Origin: an uncultured Candidatus Saccharibacteria bacterium
GTDB lineage: Bacteria; Patescibacteriota; Minisyncoccia; Phycocordibacterales; UBA918
Direction: 5' to 3'
Length of the DNA: 64,000 bases
NCBI GenBank assembly: GCA_964350645.1
Contig: CAYGJY010000002.1
Coordinates: forward strand, 97,538-161,537
The notes beneath the pieces are model-generated. The model did no database searches and had not been told where the DNA came from. It saw nothing but the letters and a program-made list of their open reading frames with translations. This document shows positions 10,419-64,000 of the stretch, piece by piece; positions within the stretch are counted from its first letter, which is position 1, and every line of letters begins with the position of its first letter. The position numbers were made by a program, and so were the translations under genes.

Positions 10419-10419
10419 A

Positions 10420-15758: not shown

Positions 15759-15816
15759 AAATTAATTATAGCAGCAAGCTAGGATTTGAGAGGTACGAAC
15801 TTCCCCAGACAATCAA

Positions 15817-16779: not shown

Positions 16780-16834
16780 ATATACCAGTATAAGCTACAG
16801 CTGCTAAGTCCTGCTCTGCAATTGTTCATAATAT

Positions 16835-17581: not shown

Positions 17582-17599
17582 GCAGTAAGTATATCACTG

Positions 17600-20463: not shown

Positions 20464-20466
20464 GCA

Positions 20467-21030: not shown

Positions 21031-21032
21031 AG

Positions 21033-23063: not shown

Positions 23064-23065
23064 AA

Positions 23066-24547: not shown

Positions 24548-24552
24548 ATGTA

Positions 24553-49781: not shown

Positions 49782-49815
49782 ACAATCACACGAAAGCTAT
49801 TTATGTCAAGACATT

Positions 49816-49840
49816 AAAACGGCTCTACAGAGCCGTTTTA
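49816..49840. terminator. Terminator after xth
   Basis: aaaacggctct-ac-agagccgtttt. Confidence 0.6.
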
Positions 49841-49843
49841 ATG

Positions 49844-49861
49844 TGTCTTTTATAAAGGACA
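49844..49861. repeat. Copy 1 of 18 bp palindromic motif TGTCyTTTATAAAGGACA
   Basis: tgtcttttataaaggaca. Confidence 0.5.
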
Positions 49862-49895
49862 ATAACAAAAAGTTTTCCCCAGTTATACACACGTC

Positions 49896-49923
49896 TGTCC
49901 TTTACACTACCCTATAAAGGACA
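49896..49923. promoter_or_regulatory. Split copy of the palindromic motif (tgtccttta-N10-tataaaggaca) overlapping a consensus-like sigma70 promoter
   Basis: -35 TTTACA (49901..49906), 17 bp spacer, -10 TACTAT (49924..49929). The palindrome halves bracket the -35 and spacer, an operator-like arrangement. Confidence 0.45.
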
Positions 49924-49936
49924 TACTATATTGGTA

Positions 49937-50385
49937 GGCCCAGCAAGGGCGAGCACAGTACTCCAGAGTTTTGCCAAGAAGAACGTTCGAAGCAAAACTC
50001 TGGAGGAATGTCTTAAAGAGCACATTCAAAATAATAGAGGACGAAAGTCCTCACAGAGATAATACCTCCATCTCTAAAAGTTCATAACATTCCCACCTAA
50101 TTGACTCGACTTACCTATGAGTCGCGAAGAGGACCGAAGTGTAGAGCCTTCGATTCTCCTCACGACTCATAGATAAGAAGTTAAGTTAAAACTTATCTAA
50201 ACGAGTCACAAAAGAGTAAAAATAGCGGAATCCTCGTCAACAACCTTCCACAGTTGAAGACAAGAAAAGGAGACCACTGAGGCAATTGCCTCTCTACTCT
50301 ATATCAAAGACCTGTCGGGGTCTCGGCAGTTAATCACCTTCACCACTGATTGACTTCCAAGATCCCCGCGGGTCTTTTTTTATGG
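49937..50385 (+). ncRNA. Candidate novel structured ncRNA (about 450 nt) running from the promoter to an intrinsic terminator
   Basis: No ORF of 60 aa or more on the plus strand. Consecutive perfect hairpins: ccagagtttt/aaaactctgg (49955..49995), gaggac-GAAA-gtcctc, gagat/atctc, and ctatgagtcg...cgactcatag (50115..50171) with nested cgaag/cttcg. Ends at tccccgcgggtcttttttt (50362..50385). Confidence 0.35.
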
Positions 50386-50590
50386 AATTAAGAAGCAGCA
50401 AAGCTGCGACTATATTTCCATTATGCAAACACCCAGTAGTTTCGACCCTCATAGGGAGAAAATACGCGGTGTCTTGCCTAGTAGTTCAAACTTATCTAAA
50501 CTCTCTATACGCAGTGATCAAGCCATCAAAAGGCGAATACGCACTAGTGTCTTGCCAGGTAATCCGTATTTTTTATATTCAAGTTACATA

Positions 50591-50640
50591 CCCGCCTAAA
50601 AGGGCAGAAATACTTTGTATTTCTGCCCTTTTAGCGTCCA
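50591..50640. terminator. Bidirectional terminator at the cca 3' end
   Basis: aaaagggcagaaata-ctttg-tatttctgcccttttag, perfect 15 bp stem. Confidence 0.7.
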
Positions 50641-50649
50641 CATGATCGT

Positions 50650-52128
50650 TTAGCCTACCTTATGTTCCCATTCGATCGCTTTGATAGCGGCCGCTTCTTC
50701 TTCGGCTTGTTTAGCACGGCCTTTTTGTGCCAAAGCTTCAAGCTCTGAAATATCCATAGCTAGCAAGGCTTTTGTACGGTTATCCAGGTATTCTTCAGTG
50801 TTTTTCCCTGGGTCTTCCAACACCTCTTCCAACAGTGCATGCAGTAGATATCCTAGCTTTTTCCCCGGCTTTTCCCCATACTTATCCATAATTCTATCCC
50901 CATTGGTCTTTAAGAGCTTCACGGAGATTGGGTCACGCAGCGCCTGATCAACCATCGCCTTGTATTTGCGGAAGCGAAAGGGTTGTTCTTTTGGTCTCCC
51001 GGTCCCAATCCGGTCACAGACGCGTAAATTGAGTAAATCTTCAATGTTTTCTTCGCCAATGCGAACAATGGTACGCCGGACCGCTGAGAGGGTGATTTCG
51101 TCTGGGTCTGAAAAAAACATGTGCCAGCGTACCAGTTTTTCGACTTTTTCGCTCATTTCACGCGGCATTTTCAGGCGTTTCATGATTTTCCGGGCCATTT
51201 TGGCACCCACTACCTCATGACCAAAGAAGGTATAGCGTTTGTTTTTGCCGCCTTCCCTACGAGTGGCTGGTTTGCCGATGTCGTGCAACAAGGCGGCATA
51301 GCGCATCTCAAGTGAGAAATCTTTGTCAGCCGCTGCTTGGCAAGTACGTAACAAGTGTTCGAATACATCATACGCGTGAATGCCGCCTTGTTCGCAGCCT
51401 TTGCTTGGGAGAATTTCGGGCAGGACATATTCAAGCATCTCCAGGCGATCCAAGAAGGCAATACCTTGCATTGGGGCGGCTGAAGCCATAATCTTAGAGA
51501 ACTCCTCAGCGATTCGTTCGATCGATATATGGCCCAAACGTTCACTATTTTTAACAATAGAACTCATGGTTTCGGCATCAATGGCAAAGTTGAGCTCAGT
51601 AGCTAGCCTCACAGCACGCATCATGCGGAGGGCGTCTTCGCCAAAGCGTTCATCTGGTTCGCCGACAGTTTTAAGGCGTTTTTTCTTAATATCCTCTTGT
51701 CCAGTAAATAAATCAACTACTTTCTCATCTTTTAAACGAAAGGCGATGGCATTGACGGTAAAATCACGACGCTTGAGGTCTTCTTCTAATGAAACACCAA
51801 ACGAGACTGAATCTGGTCGGCGACTGTCTGAGTAGCCACTTTCGCTACGGTATGGAGTCACTTCCACCACTTTCAAACGTTCATCATCGGTTGCTTCGTT
51901 CACAACCCCGACAGTGCCATAGTCGTTATTGCAGAATGTTTCTTCTTCGGTCCATAGCGCTCGGATCTGTTCAGGGTGGGCGTTGGTGGTAAGGTCCCAG
52001 TCCTTCGGGGTTTTGCCTATTAAAAGATCGCGTACACAGCCACCCACTAAGTAGGCTTCAAAACCGGCTTTTTCTAAGGTGTCAGCTACCTGTTGAACTT
52101 CGACTGGAACGTCAGAGCGAGTAATCAT
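50650..52128 (-). CDS. cca: CCA-adding enzyme / tRNA nucleotidyltransferase with HD domain
   Basis: 492 aa; GGCVRDLLIGKTPKDWDLTT polymerase-beta head; HDIGK HD motif. Confidence 0.85.
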   Translation of the reverse strand: MITRSDVPVEVQQVADTLEKAGFEAYLVGGCVRDLLIGKTPKDWDLTTNAHPEQIRALWTEEETFCNNDYGTVGVVNEATDDERLKVVEVTPYRSESGYSDSRRPDSVSFGVSLEEDLKRRDFTVNAIAFRLKDEKVVDLFTGQEDIKKKRLKTVGEPDERFGEDALRMMRAVRLATELNFAIDAETMSSIVKNSERLGHISIERIAEEFSKIMASAAPMQGIAFLDRLEMLEYVLPEILPSKGCEQGGIHAYDVFEHLLRTCQAAADKDFSLEMRYAALLHDIGKPATRREGGKNKRYTFFGHEVVGAKMARKIMKRLKMPREMSEKVEKLVRWHMFFSDPDEITLSAVRRTIVRIGEENIEDLLNLRVCDRIGTGRPKEQPFRFRKYKAMVDQALRDPISVKLLKTNGDRIMDKYGEKPGKKLGYLLHALLEEVLEDPGKNTEEYLDNRTKALLAMDISELEALAQKGRAKQAEEEAAAIKAIEWEHKVG

Positions 52129-52300
52129 TGAGGTAATTGTATACCATCTAATCTATATTTACTTGCAGATTTATGCGATAAAAACATTGCGTTTTGTCTG
52201 ATTGCGACGTATAGTATTTGCCACTAGCGCTGTATGCAAAGCATACAGACGCTCGTTAGAAAAAAATATAAGTGCTAGCATTTCTATTATTTTCTCAATC

Positions 52301-52372
52301 GCGCCTGTAGTGAAATGGATATCACAACTGACTTCGGATCAGTTATTCTGGGTTCGAGTCCTGGCAGGCGCA
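52301..52372 (+). tRNA. tRNA-Arg (anticodon TCG)
   Basis: Manual fold: acceptor GCGCCTG/CAGGCGC, D-stem GTGA/TCAC, anticodon stem ACTGA/TCAGT with loop CTTCGGA, T-arm CTGGG-TTCGAGT-CCTGG, discriminator A; CCA not encoded. Confidence 0.7.
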
Positions 52373-52379
52373 CAGCCGC

Positions 52380-52418
52380 AAAAGCCCCAAATGAAGAAGT
52401 CTTTTGGGGCTTTTGTTA
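52380..52418 (+). terminator. Terminator after tRNA-Arg
   Basis: aaaagccccaaa-tgaagaagtc-ttttggggctttt. Confidence 0.6.
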
Positions 52419-52431
52419 TACTATTTCCATC

Positions 52432-52716
52432 ATGGAATTATCTGAACGATATTTACAGCAGTTAGAAAAAGAAGGCTTTGCCCGAGTCTATGACGATAGT
52501 GATGAACCCGGGACCGCCTATAAGCCGCATAGTCATCGAGGTAAGGTAACGCTGTGGCTGACTGACGGTGAGCTCGAGATAACTATCGCTGGTGAAACCA
52601 AGCATTATAAAGCTGGTGATCGAATCAATATCCCAGCGGGTGTAGAGCATAGTACCGTGGTGGGCAGTCAATCGCTTAACTATGTGGTCGCTGAGGAGAT
52701 TGTTGGTGATGCCTAG
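52432..52716 (+). CDS. Cupin-domain small protein
   Basis: About 95 aa from MELSERYLQQ...; cupin_2-like HSH...G...E...H pattern (PHSHRGKVTLWLTDGELEITIAGETKHYKAGDRINIPAGVEHS). The ORF track extends upstream across the tRNA. Confidence 0.55.
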   Translation: MELSERYLQQLEKEGFARVYDDSDEPGTAYKPHSHRGKVTLWLTDGELEITIAGETKHYKAGDRINIPAGVEHSTVVGSQSLNYVVAEEIVGDA

Positions 52717-52937
52717 TGGTATACTATCTGCATATGAAATCATATAAATCATTGGGCCTGGTCATGTTTTCACTGTTGGTGTTAATTGCAGCGATGCTGG
52801 GGCTATTGCTTATTCTTAAGGCTATCTCTTGGGCGGATGTGCTAGCTGCTACAGTGAGTATTTTTGCCGTCTTGGCACTCATCACTGCGGTGTCAGCAGC
52901 GTTTATTTTCATTAGTAAATCTTCCAAATCTGAGTAA
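52716..52937 (+). CDS. Small two-TM membrane protein (hypothetical)
   Basis: 73 aa, hydrophobic; possible later start at 52734. Confidence 0.3.
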   Translation: MVYYLHMKSYKSLGLVMFSLLVLIAAMLGLLLILKAISWADVLAATVSIFAVLALITAVSAAFIFISKSSKSE

Positions 52938-53041
52938 GCTCTGGTTGGGGTAATAAAAAGCTGGTCTGAGTGATTGGACTGGCTTTTTACATTGATAACT
53001 TTCATTCTGAACACTATTATAGTATATAATATACATACAAT

Positions 53042-53704
53042 ATGGTTCGAGATGAAGAAAAGTACCAGTTAGCAACGTATTATCGCAAACGCGGTTTTAC
53101 CTATGCTGAGATAGCTAAAATATGTAACGTATCTAAAGGAACCGTGAGTACCTGGTTGGCTAAAAAAGCTTTTTCTAAGAAAGTAAAAAAAGATAATCTT
53201 GTTCGTGCGGGTAAAGATAATGCTAAGCGGGTTAGCCTTCTCAATAAAGCACGCCAAACCGAACGCGCTGCCCGCTATAAAGAAGCAGAGCGATCAGCAG
53301 TGACAGAATACCGACACTATAAGAGTGACCCCTTTTTCATGGCGGCCTTGATGATTTACGACTTGTCAGGCGATACAAGAGATCTCTCGCGGATTCGTCT
53401 GACTTGTAAATCAATGTCAGCTCATCGCATTTTTATAAAGTTTCTACACCAATATCTTGGGGTAGAAAAAAATTTGGTTACGTGCTGGTTGATCATTCCG
53501 GCTAATGTGTCAGAGAAAACTGCATTATTTGCTTGGCAGAAGGTTACTAAGTTACCAGCCAGTCAGTTTGGTAAAACACAAATTTTGAAACAGACTGCCA
53601 ATACGTTGCACAATGGCACGGGAAATACTATAATCGGCAACACTGTTTTGAAGCGCAAGCTAGTAACATGGCTTGAATTAGCGACAAAAGAGCTCAGTAA
53701 ATAA
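53042..53704 (+). CDS. HTH-domain DNA-binding protein (hypothetical)
   Basis: 220 aa; N-terminal HTH YYRKRGFTYAEIAKICNVSKGTVSTWL; ends 2 bp before tRNA-Gly. Confidence 0.45.
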   Translation: MVRDEEKYQLATYYRKRGFTYAEIAKICNVSKGTVSTWLAKKAFSKKVKKDNLVRAGKDNAKRVSLLNKARQTERAARYKEAERSAVTEYRHYKSDPFFMAALMIYDLSGDTRDLSRIRLTCKSMSAHRIFIKFLHQYLGVEKNLVTCWLIIPANVSEKTALFAWQKVTKLPASQFGKTQILKQTANTLHNGTGNTIIGNTVLKRKLVTWLELATKELSK

Positions 53705-53706
53705 AC

Positions 53707-53777
53707 GCGGCCATGGTTAAGTGGTATAACGGGTCCTTGCCAAGGATCAGTCGGGGTTTCGATTACCCCTGGCCGCA
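53707..53777 (+). tRNA. tRNA-Gly (anticodon GCC)
   Basis: Manual fold: acceptor GCGGCCA/TGGCCGC, D-stem GTTA/TAAC, anticodon loop TTGCCAA, T-arm GGGGT-TTCGATT-ACCCC; terminator hairpin at 53788..53815. Confidence 0.7.
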
Positions 53778-53887
53778 CACATTGAAAAAGATCAGGATTT
53801 GTCCTGGTCTTTTTCATTTCTGGCCGGCAATCGAAAATTAAACATAATGTAACCATCTGTAAGTAGATCTGGTATTATGATACGACT

Positions 53888-55039
53888 ATGGCTCGAGTTG
53901 CAATTACGGAGTATGCCGCCAAAAAATTGATATTTGGTGATGATTATCACGGGCTGACAGTTACCCCGAACACCGCTGATGATCTTAAGGTACCAACCGG
54001 AAAATACATTGTAAAAATCGATGTTGGGATCAAAAAACGCGGAAAACAAGGCTTAGTTCGACTTAACGTAGCTGCAGAAGATGTGCCTTCAGCAGCTAAT
54101 GAGCTTTTTGCGCTTGGCTACGATCGTTGTGTCGTGGAGGTGATGGTGCCACATGAAACAGATGAGGAGCGATATCTTTCGCTTGATGTGCACCGGACTG
54201 GCTTGCAGTTGATCCACTCTGAAAAAGGCGGGGTTGAGATTGAGGCGGCGGCTGAAGCTGATATCAAGCGGACGCTCGTGGCTTTGCAGGAATTTTTGAG
54301 CGGCACACCGTCGATCTCGATCGACGGTGTGCCGCTCCCCTACTTACTCGAAAAAATGGCAGAGCATCATTTTTCTTTTTTAGAGATAAATCCCTACCTG
54401 GTTGTAGAAGACAAGCTGGTAGCGCTTGATATGGCGGTTGAGATTGATTCAACTAAAGAAAACAAGCTGCCAGCGTGGGTGCATGAACATATTTTGCATA
54501 AAAAAGCGGCGAGTGAACAAGAAGCGCGCGTACTCGAACAAGATGCGCGCACCCAAGCCGCCCTTAATTTACATACCCTTAATCCAAATGGTTCGATTTT
54601 AACGTTACTCTCTGGCGGTGGCGCGAGCTTAGTTGGGCTCGATTCTCTCGTCACTGCTGGTCTGCAAGATCAGGTGATCAATTACAGTGAGTATAGTGGC
54701 GCTCCAACCCGGGATGAAACCGCTGTATACGTTGCTACGTTACTTGAAGTACTTTTCAATTCTACCTCTAAAAATAAGGTTATTTTGGTCGCCGGCGGGG
54801 TCGCAAACTTTACCGATGTACTTGCGACCTTCCAGGGAATTGTCGATGCGTTTACTGACAATCTTGAACAATTACAGGCGCAAAACGTGTACGTCTGTGT
54901 CCGACGTGGTGGTCCAAATCAAGAGAATGGCCTGGCTCATCTACGCGACTGGCTTGATCAGCATGATATTCCTAATGATGTCCACGACCCTTCCCTCTCG
55001 CTCGGTGAAGTCGGTAATTTAGTAACAAAACATCTATGA
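53888..55039 (+). CDS. aclB: ATP-citrate lyase beta (small, ATP-grasp) subunit
   Basis: 383 aa; matches ACL/SucC-like N-terminal half of ACLY: YLEINPYLVV, LLSGGGASLV, NYSEYSGAP, VAGGVANFTDVLATFQGI, VRRGGPNQENGL. Confidence 0.8.
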   Translation: MARVAITEYAAKKLIFGDDYHGLTVTPNTADDLKVPTGKYIVKIDVGIKKRGKQGLVRLNVAAEDVPSAANELFALGYDRCVVEVMVPHETDEERYLSLDVHRTGLQLIHSEKGGVEIEAAAEADIKRTLVALQEFLSGTPSISIDGVPLPYLLEKMAEHHFSFLEINPYLVVEDKLVALDMAVEIDSTKENKLPAWVHEHILHKKAASEQEARVLEQDARTQAALNLHTLNPNGSILTLLSGGGASLVGLDSLVTAGLQDQVINYSEYSGAPTRDETAVYVATLLEVLFNSTSKNKVILVAGGVANFTDVLATFQGIVDAFTDNLEQLQAQNVYVCVRRGGPNQENGLAHLRDWLDQHDIPNDVHDPSLSLGEVGNLVTKHL

Positions 55040-56760
55040 TCAACGACATTCGCACTAGTGAGCCGAAGATTTTAGTAGCCGGTAATCACGTCAAGATCAT
55101 TCAATCGATGCTGGATTTTGACTACGCTGCAGGGAAAGAATCACCGAGTGTGGTGGGGATTATTTCGGCCGGCCGTAAAACTCAAAAGTTTTTCTGGGGC
55201 GATGGTGAGATCTTGGTGCCGGTAGTGCCCGACGTTGAGGCAGCAAAAAAGGCTTCATTTGAGCCAGATTTCCTGCTTTGTATCACTTCGGCTTCGAGTA
55301 CACCACGGATGGTCGAGGCATTTTTTGCTGCGTTCCCAGCAGCTGTCGGCGCCCATCTCTTCGCTGAAGGGGTGGCCGAGCGCGATGCGCTTCAGTTGAT
55401 CGAAGCGTATGGCGAAGAGAAGCTTATTCTCGGTGCTTCGGGGGTTGGTCTTTGTGTACCAGGCAGCCTTAAACTAGGCGCTATTGGCGGTATTCTGGGT
55501 CCACGACTGGCTGAACTAGGTCGAACTCGTGGTCACACGGCGGTGATTTGCAGTTCTGGTGGTATGGTCAACGAACTTATGTACCAGGTCGTTGCTGCCG
55601 GCAGTGGGATTAGTTTTGCGGCTTGTTACGGAGGCGACCGTTTCCCTGTCACTTCCCCGCTACAGTGGCTTACACAAGCTCAAAACGACCCGGAGACCAA
55701 AGATATTGTCTACTTTGGGGAATTGGGTGGTGACGATGAGTATACGCTTCGAGACGCCATTAAGGCTGGCAATATCACTAAGCCAGTCTATGCCTATATT
55801 GCTGGCCGCTACGAAAGTCAGGATGAAACAATCCAGTTTGGCCATGCTAAAGCCCTCGCTAAAGCAGAATCAGAGACAGCGGCGGCTAAAATGGCTGCTT
55901 TGGCTGCTGTCGGAGTGAACGTCAGCGATACATTTAATGATTTTATGGCTACGTTCGCCTCGCTTTCACGTGAAACTAGCGTTGGCGAGTCAGTTCGGGA
56001 CTGGAATGAACGCCCGGCTCATCTACAGCCGACTGTCTATTCTGCCCCGGCGTATACTGGCGCCCATGCGGCCAGCTTTACCGAAGGTATTTTGGCTCGC
56101 ATTCTCGGTCGCAGCAGTGTTTCACGGGAAACCGCTGACTTTGCTGACTTGATCTTTGCGCAGTTGATCGACCATGGACCACATGTGTCTGGAGCGGTAA
56201 ATACTATGATTACTACTCGAGCTGGCCGTGACCTAAGCTCGGCCCTGGCTACGGGTGTCCTGACAGTTGGTGATCGCTTTGGTGGCGCTATCAATGGTGC
56301 CGCTCAGATTTGGCACGATGCTGTTTCACGTGGCATCACTGCCGATGAGCTGGTGGCAGACTACAGCCAGCAGCGCCAGTATATTTTAGGCATTGGACAC
56401 CGAAAATACTCAGTGTATAAGCCAGATCCGCGCGTACAAGCCTTGATTGAGCATGGTAAAAATGTTCTACGTGAAACACCTCACCTTGATTTTGCCCTGT
56501 CAGTGGAGACAATCACCGCTAAAAAGCGCGCTAACCTGATTTTAAATGTAGATGGTGTTATTTCAGCTCTATTTACGGACTATTTGATTGCCAAAGAAGA
56601 CTTTACTGCTGAAGACATTGCTGAACTTATCGATATTGAGTTTTATAATGCTCTGTTCCTCATTCCTCGTTCGGTGGGGTTTGTCGGAAATTATCTCGAT
56701 CAAAAACGCATTGACGAAGGATTGTTTCGTTTGGGCGACAAAGATAGCTATAATTTTTAG
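55036..56760 (+). CDS. aclA: ATP-citrate lyase alpha (large) subunit: CoA-binding/phospho-His domain plus citrate-synthase-like domain
   Basis: 574 aa; catalytic-His loop ETIQFGHAKALAKAESETAAAKMAAL (cf. ACLY [25 protein letters not shown]); C-terminal LGIGHRKYSVYKPDPRVQAL (cf. GFGHRVKSINNPDMRVQIL). ATGA overlap with aclB. Confidence 0.8.
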   Translation: MINDIRTSEPKILVAGNHVKIIQSMLDFDYAAGKESPSVVGIISAGRKTQKFFWGDGEILVPVVPDVEAAKKASFEPDFLLCITSASSTPRMVEAFFAAFPAAVGAHLFAEGVAERDALQLIEAYGEEKLILGASGVGLCVPGSLKLGAIGGILGPRLAELGRTRGHTAVICSSGGMVNELMYQVVAAGSGISFAACYGGDRFPVTSPLQWLTQAQNDPETKDIVYFGELGGDDEYTLRDAIKAGNITKPVYAYIAGRYESQDETIQFGHAKALAKAESETAAAKMAALAAVGVNVSDTFNDFMATFASLSRETSVGESVRDWNERPAHLQPTVYSAPAYTGAHAASFTEGILARILGRSSVSRETADFADLIFAQLIDHGPHVSGAVNTMITTRAGRDLSSALATGVLTVGDRFGGAINGAAQIWHDAVSRGITADELVADYSQQRQYILGIGHRKYSVYKPDPRVQALIEHGKNVLRETPHLDFALSVETITAKKRANLILNVDGVISALFTDYLIAKEDFTAEDIAELIDIEFYNALFLIPRSVGFVGNYLDQKRIDEGLFRLGDKDSYNF

Positions 56761-56779
56761 TTCGGTACTAGCAATACTG

Positions 56780-56823
56780 CCACGTGAAATGGCCGGAAGC
56801 TTTGCTTCCGGCCATTTCACGTG
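56780..56823. terminator. Long perfect hairpin between convergent aclA and def. Its arms are parS half-site-like (CACGTGAAAT/ATTTCACGTG).
   Basis: ccacgtgaaatggccggaagc-ttt-gcttccggccatttcacgtgg. Confidence 0.6.
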
Positions 56824-56831
56824 TAACTCCC

Positions 56832-57353
56832 CTATTTCCCCCGCACGTGCTTAAGGTAGTATTCACGACTTACTAAACTCTGTGGATCAGCTAAGTCAGT
56901 AAAAAGAATTCCATTGAGGTGATTAACTTCATGTTGGATTACTCGAGCGAGCAAACCAGTAGCAGACATTTCACGTGAAACGCCTTTTTGGTCTAAATAT
57001 TTCAAAGTAATAGCAATGGATCGCTCAACTTTTCCAAATAAGCCAGGAATTGAGCCACATCCTTCCCAGTCAAGCGTTGTTTCACGTGAAAAGTCGGTAA
57101 TTTCTGGATTTATATACACCCGAAGTTCGTCAGTTATTCCCTTGCGAAACTTAGTTTCACGAATTTCTGTGACAATAATCTGCTTCGATACATTAAGCTG
57201 GGGCGCAGACAGTCCGATCAACTCTTCTCCTCGCATCGTATCAACAAGATCAGTAATGTAAGACTGAATTTTATCGGAATCTTGATTTGAAACTTCCTTA
57301 GCTGTTTCACGTAGAACCGCTTCACCAATTAGAACGCTAGGTTTAATAGACAT
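56832..57353 (-). CDS. def: Peptide deformylase
   Basis: 173 aa; GLSAPQ, EGCGSIPG, QHEVNHLNG (HExxH). Confidence 0.85.
   Translation of the reverse strand: MSIKPSVLIGEAVLRETAKEVSNQDSDKIQSYITDLVDTMRGEELIGLSAPQLNVSKQIIVTEIRETKFRKGITDELRVYINPEITDFSRETTLDWEGCGSIPGLFGKVERSIAITLKYLDQKGVSREMSATGLLARVIQHEVNHLNGILFTDLADPQSLVSREYYLKHVRGK
56967..56982. promoter_or_regulatory. parS-like site (13/16 to TGTTTCACGTGAAACA), inside def
   Basis: cattTCACGTGAAACg. Confidence 0.6.
57078..57093. promoter_or_regulatory. parS-like site (14/16), inside def
   Basis: TGTTTCACGTGAAAag. Confidence 0.65.
57303..57318. promoter_or_regulatory. parS-like site (13/16), inside the def 5' region
   Basis: TGTTTCACGTagAACc. 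Confidence 0.55.
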
Positions 57354-57406
57354 ATTCGGAGTATAACAAACTTTCTATCTTGATGTTTCCCGTGTAACAT
57401 AAGGAT

Positions 57407-58081
57407 ATGCTGAGCTTGTTAGCGGTAGTAATCATATATACGTTTGTCTTTGGTGTTGATTATTTGCGCTACCGGTCCAACCCGCTGACCTACCAGTATG
57501 TTTCACGTAGAACATACCTACTGTTTTTAGTCGGTATTCTCCCGATCATATACCTATTTTATACTGATTTTGAATCTTTTTTTGAGCATATTTATACTGA
57601 AATAGCCTTAATATCGCTATTACTAGCAATGATGTTGTTATTTAGCTATCTACTCAGCCGTGAGAGACTGCTTGTGTGTCATACATCGTCACGTACAGAA
57701 CGATGCTTAACGGCAGGTTATGTCCTTACTAAAGGTAAAGAGATTATGTTTCAACAGTTTTGTTACGCTGGGGTAGCCTTTTCTTTGGTTACTCTACTCG
57801 GGAGTGGTTTTTGGACCTACGTAGGCTATATAGTAATACTACTTATCATGCACACTCCTGTTATTTTGAGCATGAATGTTTCGGCAGCTAGTCGCCTAAC
57901 ATTAGGGATTCTAGTAATGGCCGCCCCACTTTTCTATATATTTATAGAGGTCCAACACTTTTGGCCCTCTATGTATTTACACGCATTGCTGTACGTATTT
58001 CTGTGGTTAACCTTTGCCGACTGGGAAGGAAAAATCATTCATGTTTCACATGAAACTAATAAAGTGGATAAGTGGGGATAA
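57407..58081 (+). CDS. Polytopic membrane protein (hypothetical)
   Basis: 224 aa, about 6 TM helices; contains two parS-like sites in its coding sequence. Confidence 0.5.
   Translation: MLSLLAVVIIYTFVFGVDYLRYRSNPLTYQYVSRRTYLLFLVGILPIIYLFYTDFESFFEHIYTEIALISLLLAMMLLFSYLLSRERLLVCHTSSRTERCLTAGYVLTKGKEIMFQQFCYAGVAFSLVTLLGSGFWTYVGYIVILLIMHTPVILSMNVSAASRLTLGILVMAAPLFYIFIEVQHFWPSMYLHALLYVFLWLTFADWEGKIIHVSHETNKVDKWG
57499..57514. promoter_or_regulatory. parS-like site (14/16)
   Basis: TGTTTCACGTagAACA. Confidence 0.6.
58043..58058. promoter_or_regulatory. parS-like site (14/16)
   Basis: TGTTTCACaTGAAACt. Confidence 0.6.
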
Positions 58082-58191
58082 CTGCGGGGATAGGTGGATA
58101 AAGGACAGTACTTAACAATACGAGTATTATACAAATACGCTTTAAAATATAGGTTTTAGTTATTTAATTCAGTCTTTTTAACAAAAACATA

Positions 58192-58207
58192 CGTTTCACG
58201 TGAAACA
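58192..58207. promoter_or_regulatory. parS site (15/16), intergenic upstream of yraN
   Basis: cGTTTCACGTGAAACA. Confidence 0.7.
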
Positions 58208-58254
58208 TCTATAATCAAGCCAGAGTTGATAAAATATGGCTAATAATATAGCTT

Positions 58255-58659
58255 ATGAGTAAAAAAGAACAAAATAAACAGATTGGGGATTATGGTGAGA
58301 AAATTACCCAAAACTACCTTAAAAGGCAAGGTTTTCAGATATTAGACACAAACTATCTTAAAAAGTGGGGAGAACTCGATATTGTGGCTAAAAATAAGGG
58401 TATTATACACTTTATTGAGGTTAAAACCTTAGCATATGATACAAAACTGGCTCTTGATAGGGCAGTAGGCACTGATTCTTGGCGTCCAGAAGAACAGGTG
58501 CATCAGTTTAAACTTAAACAGATATATAAAGCATTGGAATCGTGGTTGTTGGAGCATCACTATGAAGGAGAGTGGCAGATTGATGTGGCAGCTGTACGCT
58601 TAGTGGTGAGTGAAAAGTACGCTACTGTAAAACTTATCCAAAATGTCATCGAGGGCTAG
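58255..58659 (+). CDS. yraN: YraN-family (UPF0102) endonuclease-like protein
   Basis: 134 aa; GEKITQNYLKRQGFQIL...WGELDIVAKNKGIIHFIEVKT. Confidence 0.7.
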   Translation: MSKKEQNKQIGDYGEKITQNYLKRQGFQILDTNYLKKWGELDIVAKNKGIIHFIEVKTLAYDTKLALDRAVGTDSWRPEEQVHQFKLKQIYKALESWLLEHHYEGEWQIDVAAVRLVVSEKYATVKLIQNVIEG

Positions 58660-58670
58660 AAATATAGATA

Positions 58671-58707
58671 TGTCCTTTATAAAGGACTCTGTCTTTTATA
58701 TGAGACA
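58671..58707. repeat. Copy 3 of the TGTCCTTTATAAAGGAC palindrome plus an adjacent half-copy (tgtcttttata...gagacag)
   Basis: tgtcctttataaaggact ctgtcttttatatgagacag, directly after the yraN stop. Confidence 0.5.
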
Positions 58708-58828
58708 GGGTTGAGATTAGTTTTAGTAGTTATCGGCACAGTACAGTTTATTTGTTAGTTTGCCAGGTACAGTGTGAACAAAAGATGACGCCAACCTTAG
58801 AAGGTTGGCGTCATCTTTTGTATGAATG

Positions 58829-58899
58829 TCGGGGAGCCGGGAATCGAACCCGGACCACACGGTCCCAAACCGCGTACACTACCACTATGCTACACCCCG
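58829..58899 (-). tRNA. tRNA-Pro (anticodon TGG)
   Basis: Manual fold on the minus strand: acceptor CGGGGTG/CTCCCCG (one T-T mismatch), D-arm GCAT/GTGT (two G-U), anticodon stem CGCGG/CCGTG with loop TTTGGGA, T-arm CCGGG-TTCGATT-CCCGG. Confidence 0.6.
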
Positions 58900-58928
58900 A
58901 GGCAGTGAGGGTCGTGGTGTGCTAGGCC

Positions 58929-58986
58929 AACAAAATAATGAGCAGAAAATCAAAGATTTCTTTTATTTTCTGCTCATTGTTTTGTT
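58929..58986. other. 22 bp-stem hairpin between tRNA-Pro and the GC-rich island
   Basis: aacaaaataatgagcagaaaat-caaagatttctttt-attttctgctcattgttttgtt (1 mismatch). Confidence 0.5.
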
Positions 58987-59217
58987 GGTGCAAGTGAAGC
59001 TTGCGGCAGACCGTGACCGAACAACGAGAGGGTGCAAGCTTCGCTTACAGCCGTCAACCTAACTTAATTAGGTAATTGAATGTGAATCCAATTTCGCGTG
59101 CCAAATAATACCATAGCAGTATAAAATTGCGAGTCTATCTATTGTGTTATGTAAAAGTAATGGTATTGTTCGTTCGACGCTCAGAGTGGGCGTTGAACAA
59201 CGATTAGGAGACTAACT

Positions 59218-59637
59218 ATGAATTACCGAGGTTTTAACTTCACCACCGACGGCGAGAATCCGGCGGTGGTCCCCAACAGCGAGGCGGCCGCCTCGCAGTT
59301 GGGCTACAGCGGTGTAGAGGAGGTCTGCATCGCGGGTATCACCATCACCGTCGGAGACGGTGAATCGACCTGGTTCGAGAAAGTCGGGGATGGCAAGTAT
59401 CGCTCTGCAGTCTTCGTCGAGGCAATGCTAGCCTACCGCGGACATTCGCGTGGGTTAATGTCCAAGATCGTCGTCGACGAAGTCTTCATGTTGGCCCTTC
59501 GGGGCTACATGGGCGAACGAGTCTGGGCAGAAGCCACGGACTCGAATGGCGAAAAGCACGGCTTTATCCGCGCGCTTCTGCGCGGGCAGGGTAAGGACGT
59601 CACCATCGACGTTACTTGGAAGAAACCGGCCGCGTAG
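59218..59637 (+). CDS. Hypothetical protein (139 aa) in the GC-rich (about 60%) island
   Basis: Strong RBS tAGGAGactaact-ATG. GC3-rich codon usage unlike the surrounding genes. No recognisable motif. Confidence 0.5.
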   Translation: MNYRGFNFTTDGENPAVVPNSEAAASQLGYSGVEEVCIAGITITVGDGESTWFEKVGDGKYRSAVFVEAMLAYRGHSRGLMSKIVVDEVFMLALRGYMGERVWAEATDSNGEKHGFIRALLRGQGKDVTIDVTWKKPAA

Positions 59638-59679
59638 CGGCCAGCAACCGCCCTGAATAGGGCAGAGAGGAAGGTCATC

Positions 59680-60516
59680 ATGGCCGATAAACAACGTGCG
59701 GCTCTGGAAGCCGCCATCGAAGCTGCATGGGAAGCCCGCGATACGATCACCCCCGCCACAAGGGGCGATCAGCGCGACGCCATCGAGGCAACGCTGGAGG
59801 CGCTGGACAAGGGCGCGCTGCGTGTCGCGGAACGTCAGGCGGACGGCACATGGCATGTGAACCAGTGGGCCAAGAAGGCCGTTCTGCTGGGGTTCCGGAT
59901 CAAGGACATGGAAATGCAGTCCGGCGGCCCGCAGGGCGGCGGCTGGTGGGACAAGGTCGACAGCAAGTTTGCCGGATGGGGCGATGCGCAGTGGAAATCC
60001 GCCGGGTTCCGTGCCGTTCCCAACTGCATCGTGCGCAAGTCCGCCTATATCGCCAAGGGCGTGGTTCTGATGCCGTCTTTCGTCAATCTCGGCGCCCATG
60101 TCGGCGAGGGGACGATGGTCGACACCTGGGCCACGGTCGGGTCTTGCGCGCAGATCGGCAAGAATGTGCATCTGTCCGGCGGTGTCGGCATCGGCGGGGT
60201 GCTGGAGCCGATGCAGGCCGGGCCGACGATCATCGAGGACAACTGTTTCATCGGTGCGCGGTCCGAGGTTGTCGAAGGCTGCATCGTGCGCGAGGGATCG
60301 GTGCTCGGCATGGGCGTCTATATCGGCCAGTCCACCAAGATCGTTGACCGGGAAACCGGCAAATTCACTTATGGCGAGGTGCCCGCCGGGTCTGTCGTCG
60401 TGTCCGGCTCACTGCCGTCCAAGAACGGTGTGAACCTTTATTGCGCGGTGATCGTGAAGCGGGTGGATGCGCAGACCCGGTCGAAAACTTCGATCAACGA
60501 GCTACTGCGCGACTGA
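59680..60516 (+). CDS. dapD: 2,3,4,5-tetrahydropyridine-2,6-dicarboxylate N-succinyltransferase, alphaproteobacterial type
   Basis: 278 aa; about 65% GC. N-terminus [21 protein letters not shown]...[23 protein letters not shown]... and hexapeptide-repeat left-handed beta-helix region. Strongly resembles Rhodobacterales-type DapD. Confidence 0.8.
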
Positions 60517-60574
60517 GCGCAGGAGCGGTGGCCGAGCGATAGCGAGGCCACCCATGTTCTTCCGTTCTTTGGAG

Positions 60575-60612
60575 GATCCTTCCGCCCGCCCTTGCGATAG
60601 CTTGGGCGGGCG
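60575..60612 (+). terminator. GC-rich terminator at the 3' boundary of the GC-rich island
   Basis: ccgcccgccc-ttgcgatagctt-gggcgggcgg followed by cttctattttt. Confidence 0.6.
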
Positions 60613-60616
60613 GCTT

Positions 60617-61015
60617 CTATTTTTCTAAACTATCTAAAATCTCTTCAATAGAATCAACCCAGATAGCTGCTGGGTGGTAGTTGAACATAGCACAATCTTT
60701 TTGGTCGCCGAGGATAAAGATTTTCGGACTGCCGGTTTTGAGGTAGGTAGCGACTGCTGCGCCATACTCGACATACATGCCAGTACCCTCAGGGTGGGGC
60801 AGGAGGACAAAGAAATCGGCTTCAATAGCACCGTTGAAGGCACGTTCGGCGGTGTGAGCCGTCTTGGTTGGATCTGCATCGTAGGGCTTTACGTCTTCAC
60901 CATTCATCCAGTCAAAGGTCATGGTGTGACCAGCAGCTTCGAATTCAGCTTTTAAGGCTAAGGCTTTTTGGCGCAAGGGTTCGTCACTAAAACGAGTAGC
61001 CAGGTAGAATTTCAT
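60617..61015 (-). CDS. Nucleoside 2-deoxyribosyltransferase-like protein
   Basis: 132 aa; YLATRFSDE...FDW...ADFFVLLPHPEGTGMYVEYGAAVA... typical of the NDT family. Confidence 0.5.
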   Translation of the reverse strand: MKFYLATRFSDEPLRQKALALKAEFEAAGHTMTFDWMNGEDVKPYDADPTKTAHTAERAFNGAIEADFFVLLPHPEGTGMYVEYGAAVATYLKTGSPKIFILGDQKDCAMFNYHPAAIWVDSIEEILDSLEK

Positions 61016-61082
61016 AGCGTCATAATACTAAATCATAGCAACTAGTCCATATGTGTAATAAATTTGGTATGATAGCGGCATT

Positions 61083-62006
61083 ATGATTACTCATTATTTC
61101 CGGACCCTTAAAGATAGTGAGCTGAAGCAAGTCGAGGCGGTGCGTAGTGGTGTTTGGACACACGTAGTAGAACCGACTGAGGCTGAACTCGCTCAGGTGG
61201 TGAAAGACTTTGTGCTTGATGAGGCGATTGTTGAGGATATTCAAGACTTTTTTGAGGTGCCACGTATGGAACGCTCACATGGCGCCAGCTATTTCTTTAC
61301 TCGATACCCGTTTGGACAAAGTAAAGAGGATATTGAAACAGCGCCACTCTTGATTGTTATGGGGGAGTCCTTTGTACTAACAATCGCGCAGCGTGAAGTA
61401 CCTGGCTTTAAGCCGTTTATCGATGGGCGTGAAGAAATTTTTACTACGCAAAAAACCAAGTTGTTTATTACTATCATGGCGACGGTGACCAAAGCCTATG
61501 AACGACAGCTGGTTCGCACGAGGCGGGCAGTACAGAAGGATCGAACCCAGCTGCGTTCAATTGGACCAAAAGAAATCGCTCGACTTGTGCAATACGAACA
61601 TGAGCTCAATGATCTTTTGGCGGCGGTAGTGCCGACGAATGCTTGGTTGCAGCAGGTGACCAAGAGCAATAGCATGCAGCTCTTCAATGAAGATGTTGAA
61701 CTGATGGAGGACTTGATGATTGCAAATGCCCAGTTGATCGAATCATCACGCTCAGTTTTGCGGACAATCCAAAATGTACGCAGTGCAACTGAAGCGATTC
61801 TCACGAGTAACTTGAACGTCACAATTAAAACCCTTACTGTCATCACGATTTTGCTTACCATTCCAACCTTAGTGTCTTCGCTCTTTGGGATGAATGTGGT
61901 GGTACCACTTGGTGAACATATGCATGCCTTTTGGTTAATCATTACGCTAATTTTGGCTTCGGTCTCAATGTTGGTCTGGTACTTTAAAAGAATTAATTGG
62001 CTCTAG
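61083..62006 (+). CDS. corA: CorA-family Mg2+/Co2+ transporter
   Basis: 307 aa; two C-terminal TM helices with the LFGMNVV signature. Confidence 0.75.
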   Translation: MITHYFRTLKDSELKQVEAVRSGVWTHVVEPTEAELAQVVKDFVLDEAIVEDIQDFFEVPRMERSHGASYFFTRYPFGQSKEDIETAPLLIVMGESFVLTIAQREVPGFKPFIDGREEIFTTQKTKLFITIMATVTKAYERQLVRTRRAVQKDRTQLRSIGPKEIARLVQYEHELNDLLAAVVPTNAWLQQVTKSNSMQLFNEDVELMEDLMIANAQLIESSRSVLRTIQNVRSATEAILTSNLNVTIKTLTVITILLTIPTLVSSLFGMNVVVPLGEHMHAFWLIITLILASVSMLVWYFKRINWL

Positions 62007-62016
62007 GCACACAGGT

Positions 62017-62961
62017 ATGTATACTCCAAAACCATTTCATGAAGGTTATTTACCAGAACAAGACGGTCATAAAGTGTATTTTGCGCAGTATGGTAACCCT
62101 GATGGGGAGGTGATTGTGAGTTTGCATGGTGGGCCAGGATCTGCGAGTAAATCATCGCACCCAACTCGGTTTGACTTAGAGACATACCAAGTAGTAGTGT
62201 TTGACCAGCGGGGCGCTGGCAAAAGTGAACCGACTGGCTTACTCGAGCACAATACAACTGACGCGTTGATTACAGACATTGAACGACTTCGTGAACAACT
62301 GGGGATAGAAAGCTGGTTTGTGTCGGGTACCAGCTGGGGTTCAACATTGTCGTTATTATATGCTGAAGCCTATCCTGAGCGGGTGAAAGGATTATTGCTT
62401 TCAGCGATCTTTTTGGCTGATACTGCATCATGGGAATGGATGTCGACGACGCCTGATGGCGCAGGGCAGCTGTATACTGATCTCTGGGCAGAGCGTATGC
62501 GGGTGTTTGAAAAGTATGGTGCAACCGCAGAAAATGCCGCCCAGATTTTCTATGACAAACTACTCGGTGCTACACCAGAGGAAGCGCAGGAGATCACCGC
62601 TGACTACCTCAATTGGGAGAAGAATTTACTGGTGGCAGACAATCTCTCTTTGATGAATCCGTCAGAGGTGAGCGATAACCACATCACGTACGTCAAGATA
62701 TTTTTACACTACGAAGTTAATAATTGTTTTATTGAAGATAATCAGATACTCAAGAATGTTTCTAAGATAACAGATATTCCAGTGGTTTTGATACATGGAC
62801 GACACGATGTGGTTTGTCCATTTGACGGTGCGTGGCGGTTGCACCGGGCTTTGCCACAATCAAAACTTGTAGCTTTGCCGCAGAGTAACCATGCGTTCAC
62901 TCCAGATGGAGAAATGGCGCGGTATTGGGCCTATAAAGCGTTTTTGGCTGGATTGCAGTAG
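62017..62961 (+). CDS. pip: Proline iminopeptidase (alpha/beta hydrolase, S33)
   Basis: 314 aa; HGGPG, nucleophile elbow GTSWGS, catalytic-triad spacing. Confidence 0.8.
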   Translation: MYTPKPFHEGYLPEQDGHKVYFAQYGNPDGEVIVSLHGGPGSASKSSHPTRFDLETYQVVVFDQRGAGKSEPTGLLEHNTTDALITDIERLREQLGIESWFVSGTSWGSTLSLLYAEAYPERVKGLLLSAIFLADTASWEWMSTTPDGAGQLYTDLWAERMRVFEKYGATAENAAQIFYDKLLGATPEEAQEITADYLNWEKNLLVADNLSLMNPSEVSDNHITYVKIFLHYEVNNCFIEDNQILKNVSKITDIPVVLIHGRHDVVCPFDGAWRLHRALPQSKLVALPQSNHAFTPDGEMARYWAYKAFLAGLQ

Positions 62962-63054
62962 GGGAGTGAGATGGGGCGCAAAAGGGTCGGAAAAGCTTCG
63001 CTTTTCCGACCCTTTTGCCAATTTCAGTATTATATTGCCAAATCCTAACTAGCT

Positions 63055-63696
63055 GTGAAAGAAAAGGCTAATTCGCCCGTCTTCACGTATAATGGTTCTT
63101 GCATGGCAGGTCCGAAACAGACAGGCAATATACGCGAGAGCCACGAACAGCGTTTCCTAGCAGCGTTTGAAGAGTACGGTGATGCTCTTTTTCGCCACGC
63201 GACGTTACGTGTAAGTGATCGAGAACGAGCCATTGATATCGTGCACGACACGTATGCCAAAGTATGGACATACGTGCGTAACGGTCACGAAATCGAGCAG
63301 TTTCGCCCTTTTTTATACAAGGTACTCAATAATTTGATTATTGATGAATACCGGAAGCATAAAGAAACGTCGCTCGATGCGCTCTTTGAAAAAGACGGCG
63401 TGGATGATGGCTCATTTGATGAGTTGTCAGAAAACACCGTTGATTCCCTCGCTGCGACTATCGACGGTCGCAAGGCCTTCGCAGTGGTCGACAAGCTTCC
63501 CGATGTCTATCGAGAAGTTATTATCCTCCGCTTTATCGATGAGCTTGGACCAAAGGAGATTAGTGAGCTGATTGAAGAGTCAGAAAACGTCGTTTCGGTT
63601 CGCTTGCATCGTGGTCTTAAATTACTTCGCGATACCATGGCGGCCGAAGAAAAAGCCCTTACTGCTCAAAAAACAACCACCAAAAACACCACATAA
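63055..63696 (+). CDS. ECF-type RNA polymerase sigma-70 factor
   Basis: Region 2 (FLAAFEEYGDALFRHATLRVSDRERAIDIVHDTYAKVW) and region 4 HTH (PKEISELIEESENVVSVRLHRGLKLLRD). True start may be MAGPKQ at 63103. Confidence 0.75.
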   Translation: MKEKANSPVFTYNGSCMAGPKQTGNIRESHEQRFLAAFEEYGDALFRHATLRVSDRERAIDIVHDTYAKVWTYVRNGHEIEQFRPFLYKVLNNLIIDEYRKHKETSLDALFEKDGVDDGSFDELSENTVDSLAATIDGRKAFAVVDKLPDVYREVIILRFIDELGPKEISELIEESENVVSVRLHRGLKLLRDTMAAEEKALTAQKTTTKNTT

Positions 63697-63701
63697 ACCA
63701 C

Positions 63702-64000
63702 ATGAAACGCTTTGCCGAACAACTAAAGAAACAATCAGCCACCGTACGATTACGGGCGGCTGAAAAACGTGAACTCAAAGAGCGTCTTGTAGCGTATATG
63801 GAGTATCATCCGTTGCCGCAAACTATGGCTGTGCCACCTGCAACCGAACGTCTTCAGTCTGAACCATTCTCACTGTTGAATTTAAATACGTTTGAGATTC
63901 GTTCGCTCTTGGGTACCTTTGCAGTATTGTTACTCATCTTTGTGCCTGTGGTAGCAGAACGTTCAGTGCCGGGTGATGTGCTCTATCCAGTGAAGGTTAA
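63702..64000 (+). CDS. Putative anti-sigma factor / single-TM protein, partial (runs off the window end)
   Basis: ATG 6 bp after the sigma gene stop. MKRFAEQLKKQSATVRLRAAEKRELKERLVAYMEYHP... then TM LLGTFAVLLLIFVPVVA. Not in the ORF track because no stop codon lies within the window. Confidence 0.45.
   Translation, partial: MKRFAEQLKKQSATVRLRAAEKRELKERLVAYMEYHPLPQTMAVPPATERLQSEPFSLLNLNTFEIRSLLGTFAVLLLIFVPVVAERSVPGDVLYPVKV

Follow-up and report, generated by a model that had tools for sequence, protein, structure and literature searches.

A Paracoccaceae-type dapD probably placed in a conserved gene slot behind a resident small-protein gene of a Saccharibacteria-like bacterium

The DNA analyzed here, referred to as the window, is a stretch of 64,000 nucleotides (nt) from contig CAYGJY010000002.1 of an uncultured Candidatus Saccharibacteria bacterium, which we treat as a Saccharibacteria-like member of the Candidate Phyla Radiation (CPR; Patescibacteria). 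Near the end of the window lies a GC-rich stretch with two open reading frames (ORFs) on the plus strand, one of 139 amino acids (aa; 59218-59637) and one of 278 aa (59680-60516). The second is dapD, encoding a short-form tetrahydrodipicolinate N-succinyltransferase. All coordinates are positions in the window, to which our view of this genome is limited. An earlier interpretation made from the letters alone (the sequence-only reading) had described a jump in GC content over the two genes, and this is borne out: GC content is 0.59-0.66 over 59250-60600 against a window mean of 0.456, with values of 0.31-0.48 upstream and 0.44-0.50 downstream of the stretch (300-nt windows). The neighboring genes have a GC content of 0.38-0.50, and no further kilobase of the window exceeds 0.53. 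The GC content at third codon positions (GC3) is 0.74 in the 139-aa gene and 0.80 in dapD, compared to 0.21-0.54 in 19 other genes of the window. We found that this GC-rich stretch consists of two layers of different age, a resident 139-aa gene and a newly arrived dapD.

The surroundings largely correspond to the earlier description. A tRNA-Pro(TGG) gene is located upstream on the minus strand (58828-58899), followed by a hairpin at 58927-58988, whose arms are longer (30 nt, 93% complementary) than the 22-bp stem that had been reported. Genes for UPF0102/YraN and CorA flank the region as stated, while the label ‘ndt’ for the convergent 132-aa gene directly downstream (60617-61015, minus strand) is unverified: its product has neither a Pfam match (E ≤ 0.1) nor a PDB sequence match. 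A GC-rich terminator had been placed against the stop codon of this minus-strand gene, and such a stem is indeed present at 60582-60613, ending 3 nt short of the stop codon at 60617 (hairpin B).

The 278-aa ORF encodes a full-length member of the short-form DapD family (E. coli and alphaproteobacterial type). It scores 419.9 bits against TIGR00965 (cut-off 375.4) and 380.2 bits against NF008808 (cut-off 204), with residues 10-277 covered across models, and it contains the domain PF14805 (THDPS_N_2) and hexapeptide repeats (PF00132, PF14602) of the left-handed beta-helix type. The reading frame is uninterrupted and has no frameshift. What sets this copy apart from other short-form DapDs is its position as an orphan in a foreign reduced genome, with no dapA, dapB, dapC, dapE or dapF neighbors in the window, and its attachment to a small CPR-specific gene, with which it is presumably co-transcribed. 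Scanning 38 ORFs of the window (64 kb only) revealed no other dap gene, in agreement with the sequence-only reading. At this site, the public protein collection contains an antisense ORF of 238 aa (P0288; 59455-60171, minus strand) in place of DapD, which is absent from it. Evidently, the gene caller chose the wrong strand in the foreign GC-rich stretch. As dapD is missing from the predicted proteome, annotation-based surveys will miss it.

A resemblance of this DapD to Rhodobacterales enzymes had been recognized from the sequence, and the database comparison agrees, the best matches being Paracoccaceae proteins with 88-98% aa identity. The closest one (P0001, 98% aa) is encoded on contig CAYGRU010000036.1 of the metagenome-assembled genome (MAG) GCA_964352385.1, in a proteobacterial context with dapD three genes upstream of a Peptidase_M20 (DapE-type) gene. 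The named matches (88-93% aa) all belong to Paracoccaceae, including Pseudogemmobacter, Xinfangfangia, Rhodobacter, Thioclava and Ruegeria, and a neighbor-joining tree places the window DapD as sister to P0001 within this family. At the nucleotide level, the match to the Paracoccaceae MAG (L001) amounts to 93.3% and is limited to 59704-60519, hence to the coding sequence alone. The first eight codons (MADKQRAA) differ from P0001 and resemble the N-termini of other Paracoccaceae DapDs (e.g., MTAFDRAALE and MTIDKAALE). The codon differences from the MAG gene (48 synonymous, five nonsynonymous) are evenly spread, and the substitutions are balanced (20 GC-to-AT and 20 AT-to-GC) without AT-ward drift. 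The donor-like gene has a GC3 of 0.83, compared to 0.80 in dapD. At each of the five positions that differ from P0001, the residue is a state found in natural DapDs. We considered D142G and Y140H as signs of inactivation or of adaptation after the transfer and rejected this, since both states are natural: the G state occurs in nine of 120 Paracoccaceae-like and 45 of 120 other DapDs, the H state in 22 of 120. No closer donor was found on plasmids, where the best matches (79%) are dapD genes of Sinorhizobium and Ralstonia. Judged from these comparisons, dapD is an intact, unameliorated and recently acquired gene, and the horizontal acquisition from Rhodobacterales that had been one of the earlier proposals holds for it. 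The true donor is a relative of MAG GCA_964352385.1 rather than that MAG itself.

A different picture emerges for the 139-aa gene. A homolog (P0122, 88% aa identity) is found in Logan assemblies of four sibling runs (L002-L005; runs ERR3534996, -78, -77 and -61), which contain the locus with the same gene order as the window: genes resembling those for ATP-citrate lyase (ACL), def, a 224-aa gene, yraN, tRNA-Pro and the 139-aa gene, continued by the convergent 132-aa gene, corA, a gene for a proline-iminopeptidase-like hydrolase and a sigma factor gene. Both gene order and blastn indicate that dapD is absent from this locus. The copy of the 139-aa gene in these relatives is equally GC-rich (GC 0.59, GC3 0.73), and in a lineage further away, a homolog with 52% identity also stands out from its background (GC 0.55 versus 0.455). 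Homologs with about 50% aa identity occur in more distant Saccharibacteria-like genomes, and homologs adjoin corA and a sigma-factor gene in other Saccharibacteria-like contigs. Because relatives without dapD carry the 139-aa gene, equally GC-rich and at the same locus, this gene is resident, and only dapD and its 3′ tail are new. We therefore regard the 139-aa gene, on comparative grounds, as native to the host and not as part of the transfer, in contrast to the sequence-only reading. The ratio of nonsynonymous to synonymous substitution rates (dN/dS) of the gene against L002 is 0.33, which is a local maximum but remains below 1, and positive selection was rejected on this basis.

The family to which the 139-aa protein belongs is rare. 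A profile search among 1.84 billion representatives yielded 35 clusters at 50% identity, with members that are nearly all stand-alone proteins of 127-164 aa. The family lacks Pfam matches, the 139-aa protein itself has no Pfam or NCBIfam match, and 12 family members have no DapD- or HopJ-related Pfam match even at E ≤ 10.

The comparison with the relatives also bears on the proposal that the whole 1.4-kb island (139-aa gene and dapD) came in one piece from a GC-rich donor and entered at tRNA-Pro. Both genes are GC-rich and adjacent, and they are closely preceded by a tRNA gene and long hairpins, which would fit such an event. However, relatives lacking dapD hold the 139-aa gene together with the same tRNA gene and the same hairpins, so that neither of the latter can be tied to the insertion, and all family members whose context was examined lie in CPR-like surroundings, with no member detected near the Paracoccaceae dapD of the donor-like MAG. 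There is also no integrase gene within 19 kb (the nearest integrase-family gene is located at 39326-40240), and no convincing direct repeats surround the strain-specific segment. A one-piece arrival is thus hardly conceivable. Other mobile-element routes were rejected as well. Against an integron cassette, neither junction has the GTTRRRY core site of an attC site, and the window lacks an intI-like gene; for a tRNA-linked island, an integrase is lacking nearby and the arrangement from the tRNA gene to the 139-aa gene is identical in the relatives without dapD; and a candidate target-site duplication (GGAAGGTCATCA and GGAGGATCCTTC) matches at only 7 of 12 positions.

The boundaries of the new DNA were delineated by alignment to the relatives. 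By blastn, L002-L005 match the window with 96.1% identity over 58001-59686 and resume at 60639 (96.6% from there on), contrary to the idea of the island as one unit. Between these two points, the window has 952 nt and the relatives have 53 nt, which gives a maximal insertion or replacement segment of 59687-60638. For the last approximately 60 nt of this segment, comprising hairpin B and the tail of the 132-aa gene, only global alignment shows a correspondence to L002, and the truly new DNA consists of dapD plus roughly 60-120 nt of 3′ sequence. The left junction falls within about 59675-59689 and is resolved to about ten nucleotides, compared to about 65 nt for the right junction. The 42-nt spacer between both genes (59638-59679) aligns to L002 10421-10462 with few mismatches and is thus host-derived, including the Shine-Dalgarno-like sequence GAGAGGAAGG (59665-59674), which is located 5 nt upstream of the dapD start codon. 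Folding revealed no terminator between the 139-aa gene and dapD, only a weak 5-bp hairpin (z = -1.4).

Downstream of dapD, the tail of the strain-specific segment (60517-60581, plus strand) contains hairpin A (60527-60552; GGTGGCC...GGCCACC). This tail matches neither L001 nor L002 and is probably the 3′ untranslated region of the donor. It is followed by hairpin B, a terminator hairpin on the plus strand formed by a 100% complementary inverted repeat, with a perfect 10-bp G+C stem, a 12-nt loop and then the T-rich CTTCTATTTTTCT. Its stems are homologous to an intergenic hairpin of L002, while the loop differs. Hairpins A and B fold jointly with -65.8 kcal/mol (z = -6.3). Since both the spacer and the hairpin stems align to the relatives, the foreign gene sits between the stop codon of the resident gene and its terminator. 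As a separate observation, hairpins A and B, at a distance of 58 nt, differ in their stems, yet both loops contain the octamer GCGATAGC, which occurs only three times in the window and is not the loop of the L002 hairpin. Upstream of the 139-aa gene, a consensus scan revealed a promoter-like site on the plus strand (59098-59127; GTGCCA-18 nt-TAAAAT, 9/12 matches). The region is conserved in L002 and represents, on sequence grounds, a candidate promoter of the two-gene unit.

A precise insertion of this kind raises the question of whether dapD is present in the cell at all or was spliced in by the assembler from co-sampled Paracoccaceae, as the sequence-only reading had suggested with its chimera alternative. 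An independent assembly is informative here. The exact 132-aa neighbor is also found on Logan contig ERR3534981_28173 (L006, 12,780 bp), assembled from run ERR3534981, which is 100% identical to window 60174-62500. This contig spans the right junction: beginning in host DNA, it passes the terminator and the 3′ tail and extends 343 nt into dapD, where it ends at 60174, within the most conserved stretch of the gene. An end at this position is explained by branching of the de Bruijn graph if Paracoccaceae were present in the sample; stopping in a conserved part of dapD is equally what a chimera would predict, given 31-mers shared with co-sampled Paracoccaceae. The donor-like composition without amelioration and the left junction, which lacks support from an independent assembly, also fit a chimera. 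On the other hand, two precise false joins would be required 950 nt apart within an 80-nt spacer and without long shared sequence, and the right junction was obtained with 100% identity by a different assembler as well. Among public sequences, the nearest Paracoccaceae gene reaches only 93% nt identity, and its flanks are unlike the window. The flanks of the insert itself, which form a distinct allele compared to L002 (see below), also argue for a real insertion. In addition, the insert starts at a start codon behind a host ribosome-binding site, in the slot where dapD is found in other related lineages (see below), and we estimate the chance of a random misjoin into that slot at approximately 1e-3 (one in the number of intergenic regions). 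We therefore judge a chimeric assembly to be very improbable and treat the insertion of dapD as real.

Whether the relatives have never had this dapD or have lost it concerns only the timing and direction of the event. The alternative is that dapD, either the Paracoccaceae-type gene or a CPR-type gene that was later replaced, was present in the common ancestor and was deleted in L002-L005. Slots of this type are filled in some lineages and empty in others (see below), hence losses occur. Moreover, the flanks of the insert (block 59018-61038) are only 88-95.5% identical to L002 in 200-nt windows, compared to 99-100% in neighboring genes, which points to a distinct allele that was possibly imported by recombination, with several other blocks of the region being as low against L002. 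Against an early acquisition stand the two events it requires instead of one, the clean 53-nt spacer of L002 with an intact hairpin and no dapD remnant, and a dapD without any amelioration. We consider it rather unlikely, although not to the degree of an assembly artefact, and favor a gain after the split from L002-type strains, as one event suffices for this.

The combination of a small gene and dapD is not restricted to the window. Scans with the family alignment revealed four loci in species-representative genomes and two in metagenomes, one of which was new. In L016 (MAG GFS_12610), dapD is located 14 nt downstream of a homologous 141-aa gene. This dapD is 63% identical to the window DapD, and its homologs include a small clade of CPR-type enzymes. 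In L021, a small gene of 136 aa lies 39 nt upstream of dapD; L022, in which the small ORF upstream of dapD is cut by the contig end, was grouped with it. L023 encodes a 137-aa protein 12 nt upstream of dapD, and in L024 a 121-aa gene and dapD have an overlap of 4 nt. In L016, L021 and L023, the small protein shares 41-50% aa identity with that of the window, while the L024 protein is a remote homolog (17% identity by alignment). In L007, L015, L017 and L020, by contrast, the slot is empty and the family gene is found by corA, NUDIX or sigma factor genes and DUF5667. Taking the filled (L016, L021-L024) and empty loci together, we conclude that the slot is repeatedly either filled by dapD or empty.

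The pairs found in CPR genomes resemble the arrangement in the window in the small-protein family, in gene order and orientation, in the short or overlapping spacer and in the neighborhood with corA, an extracytoplasmic function (ECF) sigma factor gene and DUF5667. They differ in the origin of dapD. The window gene belongs to the Paracoccaceae clade and is much younger in its genome, whereas the CPR-type DapDs form their own branch in the neighbor-joining tree and score above the NF008808 cut-off and just under that of TIGR00965. Accordingly, GC3 of dapD is 0.80 in the window versus 0.51-0.59 in L016, L021 and L023. Among the lineages compared (L002, L007, L015, L016, L017, L020, L021 and L023), both the small-protein gene and the dapD of CPR type exceed the genome background by 4-11 GC points in nearly every case; amino-acid composition accounts for only part of this elevation, and GC3 is raised in several lineages.

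In addition, three DapDs of the CPR clade have an N-terminal extension of 105-118 residues (P0138 and P0140, both 383 aa, and P0155, 380 aa). The extension of P0155 is a HopJ domain (PF08888, E = 1.9e-19). When the profile of the small-protein family was compared with 287 proteins (HMMER filters off), these three were the only DapDs that matched. The matches are co-linear and lie inside the extensions, and they are individually non-significant (E 0.5-1.4). With hhalign, the family aligned to the P0138 and P0140 extensions with 50% probability over 54 columns and to the HopJ part of P0155 with 55% over a 28-column motif (DPxGxxHPxIRAxL). The 139-aa family itself has no PF08888 match and cannot be assigned to HopJ on this basis. 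The window, the CPR pair and L024, together with the 383-aa forms and the HopJ fusion, amount to about three to five independent associations. This recurrence of dapD, paired or fused with an N-terminal domain, in CPR-like genomes speaks against the view that an isolated dapD would not be metabolically sensible in a reduced genome. As a side note on P0155, this HopJ-DapD fusion is encoded within the ribosomal-protein S10 operon, between rplB and rpsS (L025 4001-5143, L026 1971-3113, L027 324-1466). The arrangement was seen on 16 groundwater contigs with lengths of up to 673 kb and is an unusual site for a ‘lysine biosynthesis’ gene.

The predicted structure of the 139-aa protein points in the same direction as the extended DapDs. 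An AlphaFold (AF2) model built from 35 sequences (mean predicted local distance difference test, pLDDT, 89.9; predicted template modeling score, pTM, 0.86) shows an alpha/beta fold of four beta strands and about five helices; an earlier model from five sequences had reached a pLDDT of 62. Foldseek returned as top match 2RIJ, the 381-aa long-form DapD of C. jejuni, with a probability of 0.97. This was the only notable PDB match, and 2RIJ was also the top match for the poor five-sequence model. Two chains of the P. aeruginosa DapD (3r5a and 3r5d) appear in the top 50 with template modeling (TM) scores of 0.34-0.37, and all remaining matches have a probability of at most 0.15. In the P. aeruginosa enzyme, for which 2RIJ served as molecular-replacement model, residues 1-133 form a ‘distal subdomain’ outside the active site, with a four-stranded antiparallel sheet and 3+1 helices (PMC3281039).

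We infer from the model that the 139-aa protein may be a counterpart of this distal subdomain. It resembles the N-terminal part of the long-form DapDs (C. jejuni Cj1605c, 2RIJ; P. aeruginosa PA3666, 3R5A/3R5D) in fold match, size and secondary structure, and it differs from them in being a separate polypeptide encoded 42 nt upstream of a short-form dapD and in lacking detectable sequence similarity. As four independent lines agree, namely gene order, the N-terminally extended DapDs, the modeled fold and the weak sequence signal, the 139-aa protein seems to represent an accessory domain of DapD that is encoded in trans.

Taken together, we consider it probable that the Paracoccaceae dapD filled a conserved slot for a partner gene and dapD, as an in-situ xenologous regain or replacement and not as a random island. 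Here, the resident 139-aa alpha/beta protein would act as the accessory partner of DapD. A complete, promoterless Paracoccaceae dapD would be a recent arrival that brought along about 60 nt of 3′ sequence. Most likely, it was taken up as free DNA and integrated by illegitimate or microhomology-mediated recombination, and it would have been fixed at the only site that allows it to function, behind the host Shine-Dalgarno-like sequence and before the terminator hairpin, the stems of which are also present in the relatives. Partner and dapD would then be expressed on one transcript from a promoter upstream of 59218, given that a host ribosome-binding site precedes dapD, the spacer contains no terminator and a hairpin follows the gene. 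Both proteins are expected to associate physically, with DapD presumably performing the canonical succinyl-CoA-dependent N-succinylation of tetrahydrodipicolinate or a 2-aminopimelate-like substrate. Selection for expression beside the partner could explain the position of the gene, and the outcome would recreate the operon that other lineages have with an older CPR-type dapD and that some CPR members have fused into a single protein.

Several points weigh against this interpretation. The left junction is seen in the source assembly alone. Five lineages (L002-L005, the L007 group, L015, L017 and L020) keep the small gene without an adjacent dapD, and the small gene must consequently have a role independent of dapD or work with a dapD located elsewhere. 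The DapDs of the CPR type and those of Paracoccaceae share only about 61-66% identity and have different C-terminal domains; their interchangeability is assumed. The pairs of L016, L021 and L023 may be shared by descent and thus reflect one event instead of several. Finally, the structural match to 2RIJ is of moderate quality (TM 0.48 normalized to the query, E = 1.4e-2, 142 columns), Foldseek gives no aligned range in 2RIJ, and in sequence the protein is not significantly similar to PF14790, to PF08888 or to any PDB chain.

It is also conceivable that the insertion is real but functionally meaningless, with dapD in a chance position, neutral or unexpressed, and bound to decay. No other dap gene is present in the 64-kb window, and the closest relatives manage without dapD. 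Because the transfer is so recent, selection in the recipient escapes measurement; the 48:5 ratio of synonymous to nonsynonymous differences mostly reflects evolution in Paracoccaceae. Yet the same family precedes dapD in L016, in L021 and L022, in L023 and, remotely, in L024, three DapDs of the same clade carry an additional N-terminal domain, and the only notable fold match of the small protein is a DapD. Moreover, the ORF is intact, its five residue differences are all natural variants, and it was placed with a host ribosome-binding site and terminator. A meaningless insertion is therefore unlikely, slightly more so than an old acquisition followed by loss, and refilling of the slot beside a functional partner remains our preferred explanation.

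In xenologous gene displacement, a foreign ortholog takes the place, and presumably the role, of the resident version. Similar to this process and to other horizontal acquisitions in CPR, the window has a foreign ortholog in the position that the resident version occupies in relatives. The present case is distinguished by its resolution, as the displacement is seen in situ at the level of a single gene, with the start codon of the donor behind the ribosome-binding site of the host. It may further represent a regain after loss and not a swap, since the slot is empty in the closest relatives. As a member of its well-known family, the acquired dapD is ordinary, and CPR genomes are known to receive genes by horizontal transfer. 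A literature search on dapD in CPR, Patescibacteria or Saccharibacteria and on HopJ combined with dapD found nothing relevant, and the small family with its link to dapD in CPR, the resemblance to the subdomain and the xenologous capture of dapD into the slot appear to be new.

A suspected contamination thus turns into a documented transfer of a single gene from Alphaproteobacteria to a CPR-like bacterium, which helps to calibrate how such bacteria acquire DNA. The identity of the donor might reflect a physical association of the host bacterium with Paracoccaceae. Judged by the literature search, the locus also brings together for the first time orphan DapDs of CPR, a new small-protein family and the enigmatic subdomain at the N-terminus of long-form DapDs, and a naturally split form of this subdomain is available here for experiments. 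Only tentatively, and with less confidence than we have in the refilling of the slot, we propose that CPR may have an undescribed two-component, sometimes fused, DapD system outside a complete lysine/diaminopimelate pathway, which may consist of a short-form succinyltransferase and a stand-alone counterpart of the distal subdomain. The location in the S10 operon in one lineage and the refilled slot in the window suggest that such a module matters. A possible role would be the succinylation of an imported or host-derived amino-dicarboxylate for salvage of cell-wall precursors or for detoxification.

The remainder of the window contains dnaA, dnaN, ruvB, tyrS, a gene for a class A penicillin-binding protein, carAB, pnp and uvrD, as well as genes for a VirB4/TraG-like ATPase and for an ECF sigma factor beside DUF5667, and very few tRNA genes. 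The genes dnaN and dnaA (9324-12157) lie in the part of the window with the lowest GC content (0.34), which is probably the replication origin region. A long run of ORFs on the minus strand (13685-25461), mostly without Pfam match, surrounds the VirB4/TraG-like ATPase (17600-19438) and is possibly a type IV secretion or pilus-like cluster. The two adjacent ACL-like genes (53888-56760; L002/L003 4671-7543) resemble subunits of ATP-citrate lyase or citryl-CoA synthetase, the first having Citrate_bind and ATP-grasp domains and the second CoA-ligase and citrate-synthase C-terminal domains, and are unexpected in a reduced Saccharibacteria-like genome.

Closer to dapD, a perfect hairpin with 21-nt arms (58778-58821) and the hairpin with 30-nt arms bracket tRNA-Pro, and both are kept in L002. 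A 78-aa ‘gene’ called at 58826-59062 in the Logan contigs overlaps the tRNA gene and is probably spurious. The 132-aa gene is kept beside corA in L016 too, where it encodes 131 aa. Over 49218-64000, the identity to L002 is mosaic, ranging from 87 to 100% per 200 nt: divergence is almost absent in yraN and the 224-aa gene and amounts to 7-9% in def, the 139-aa gene and the 132-aa gene. This pattern of sequence identity suggests frequent recombination among strains.

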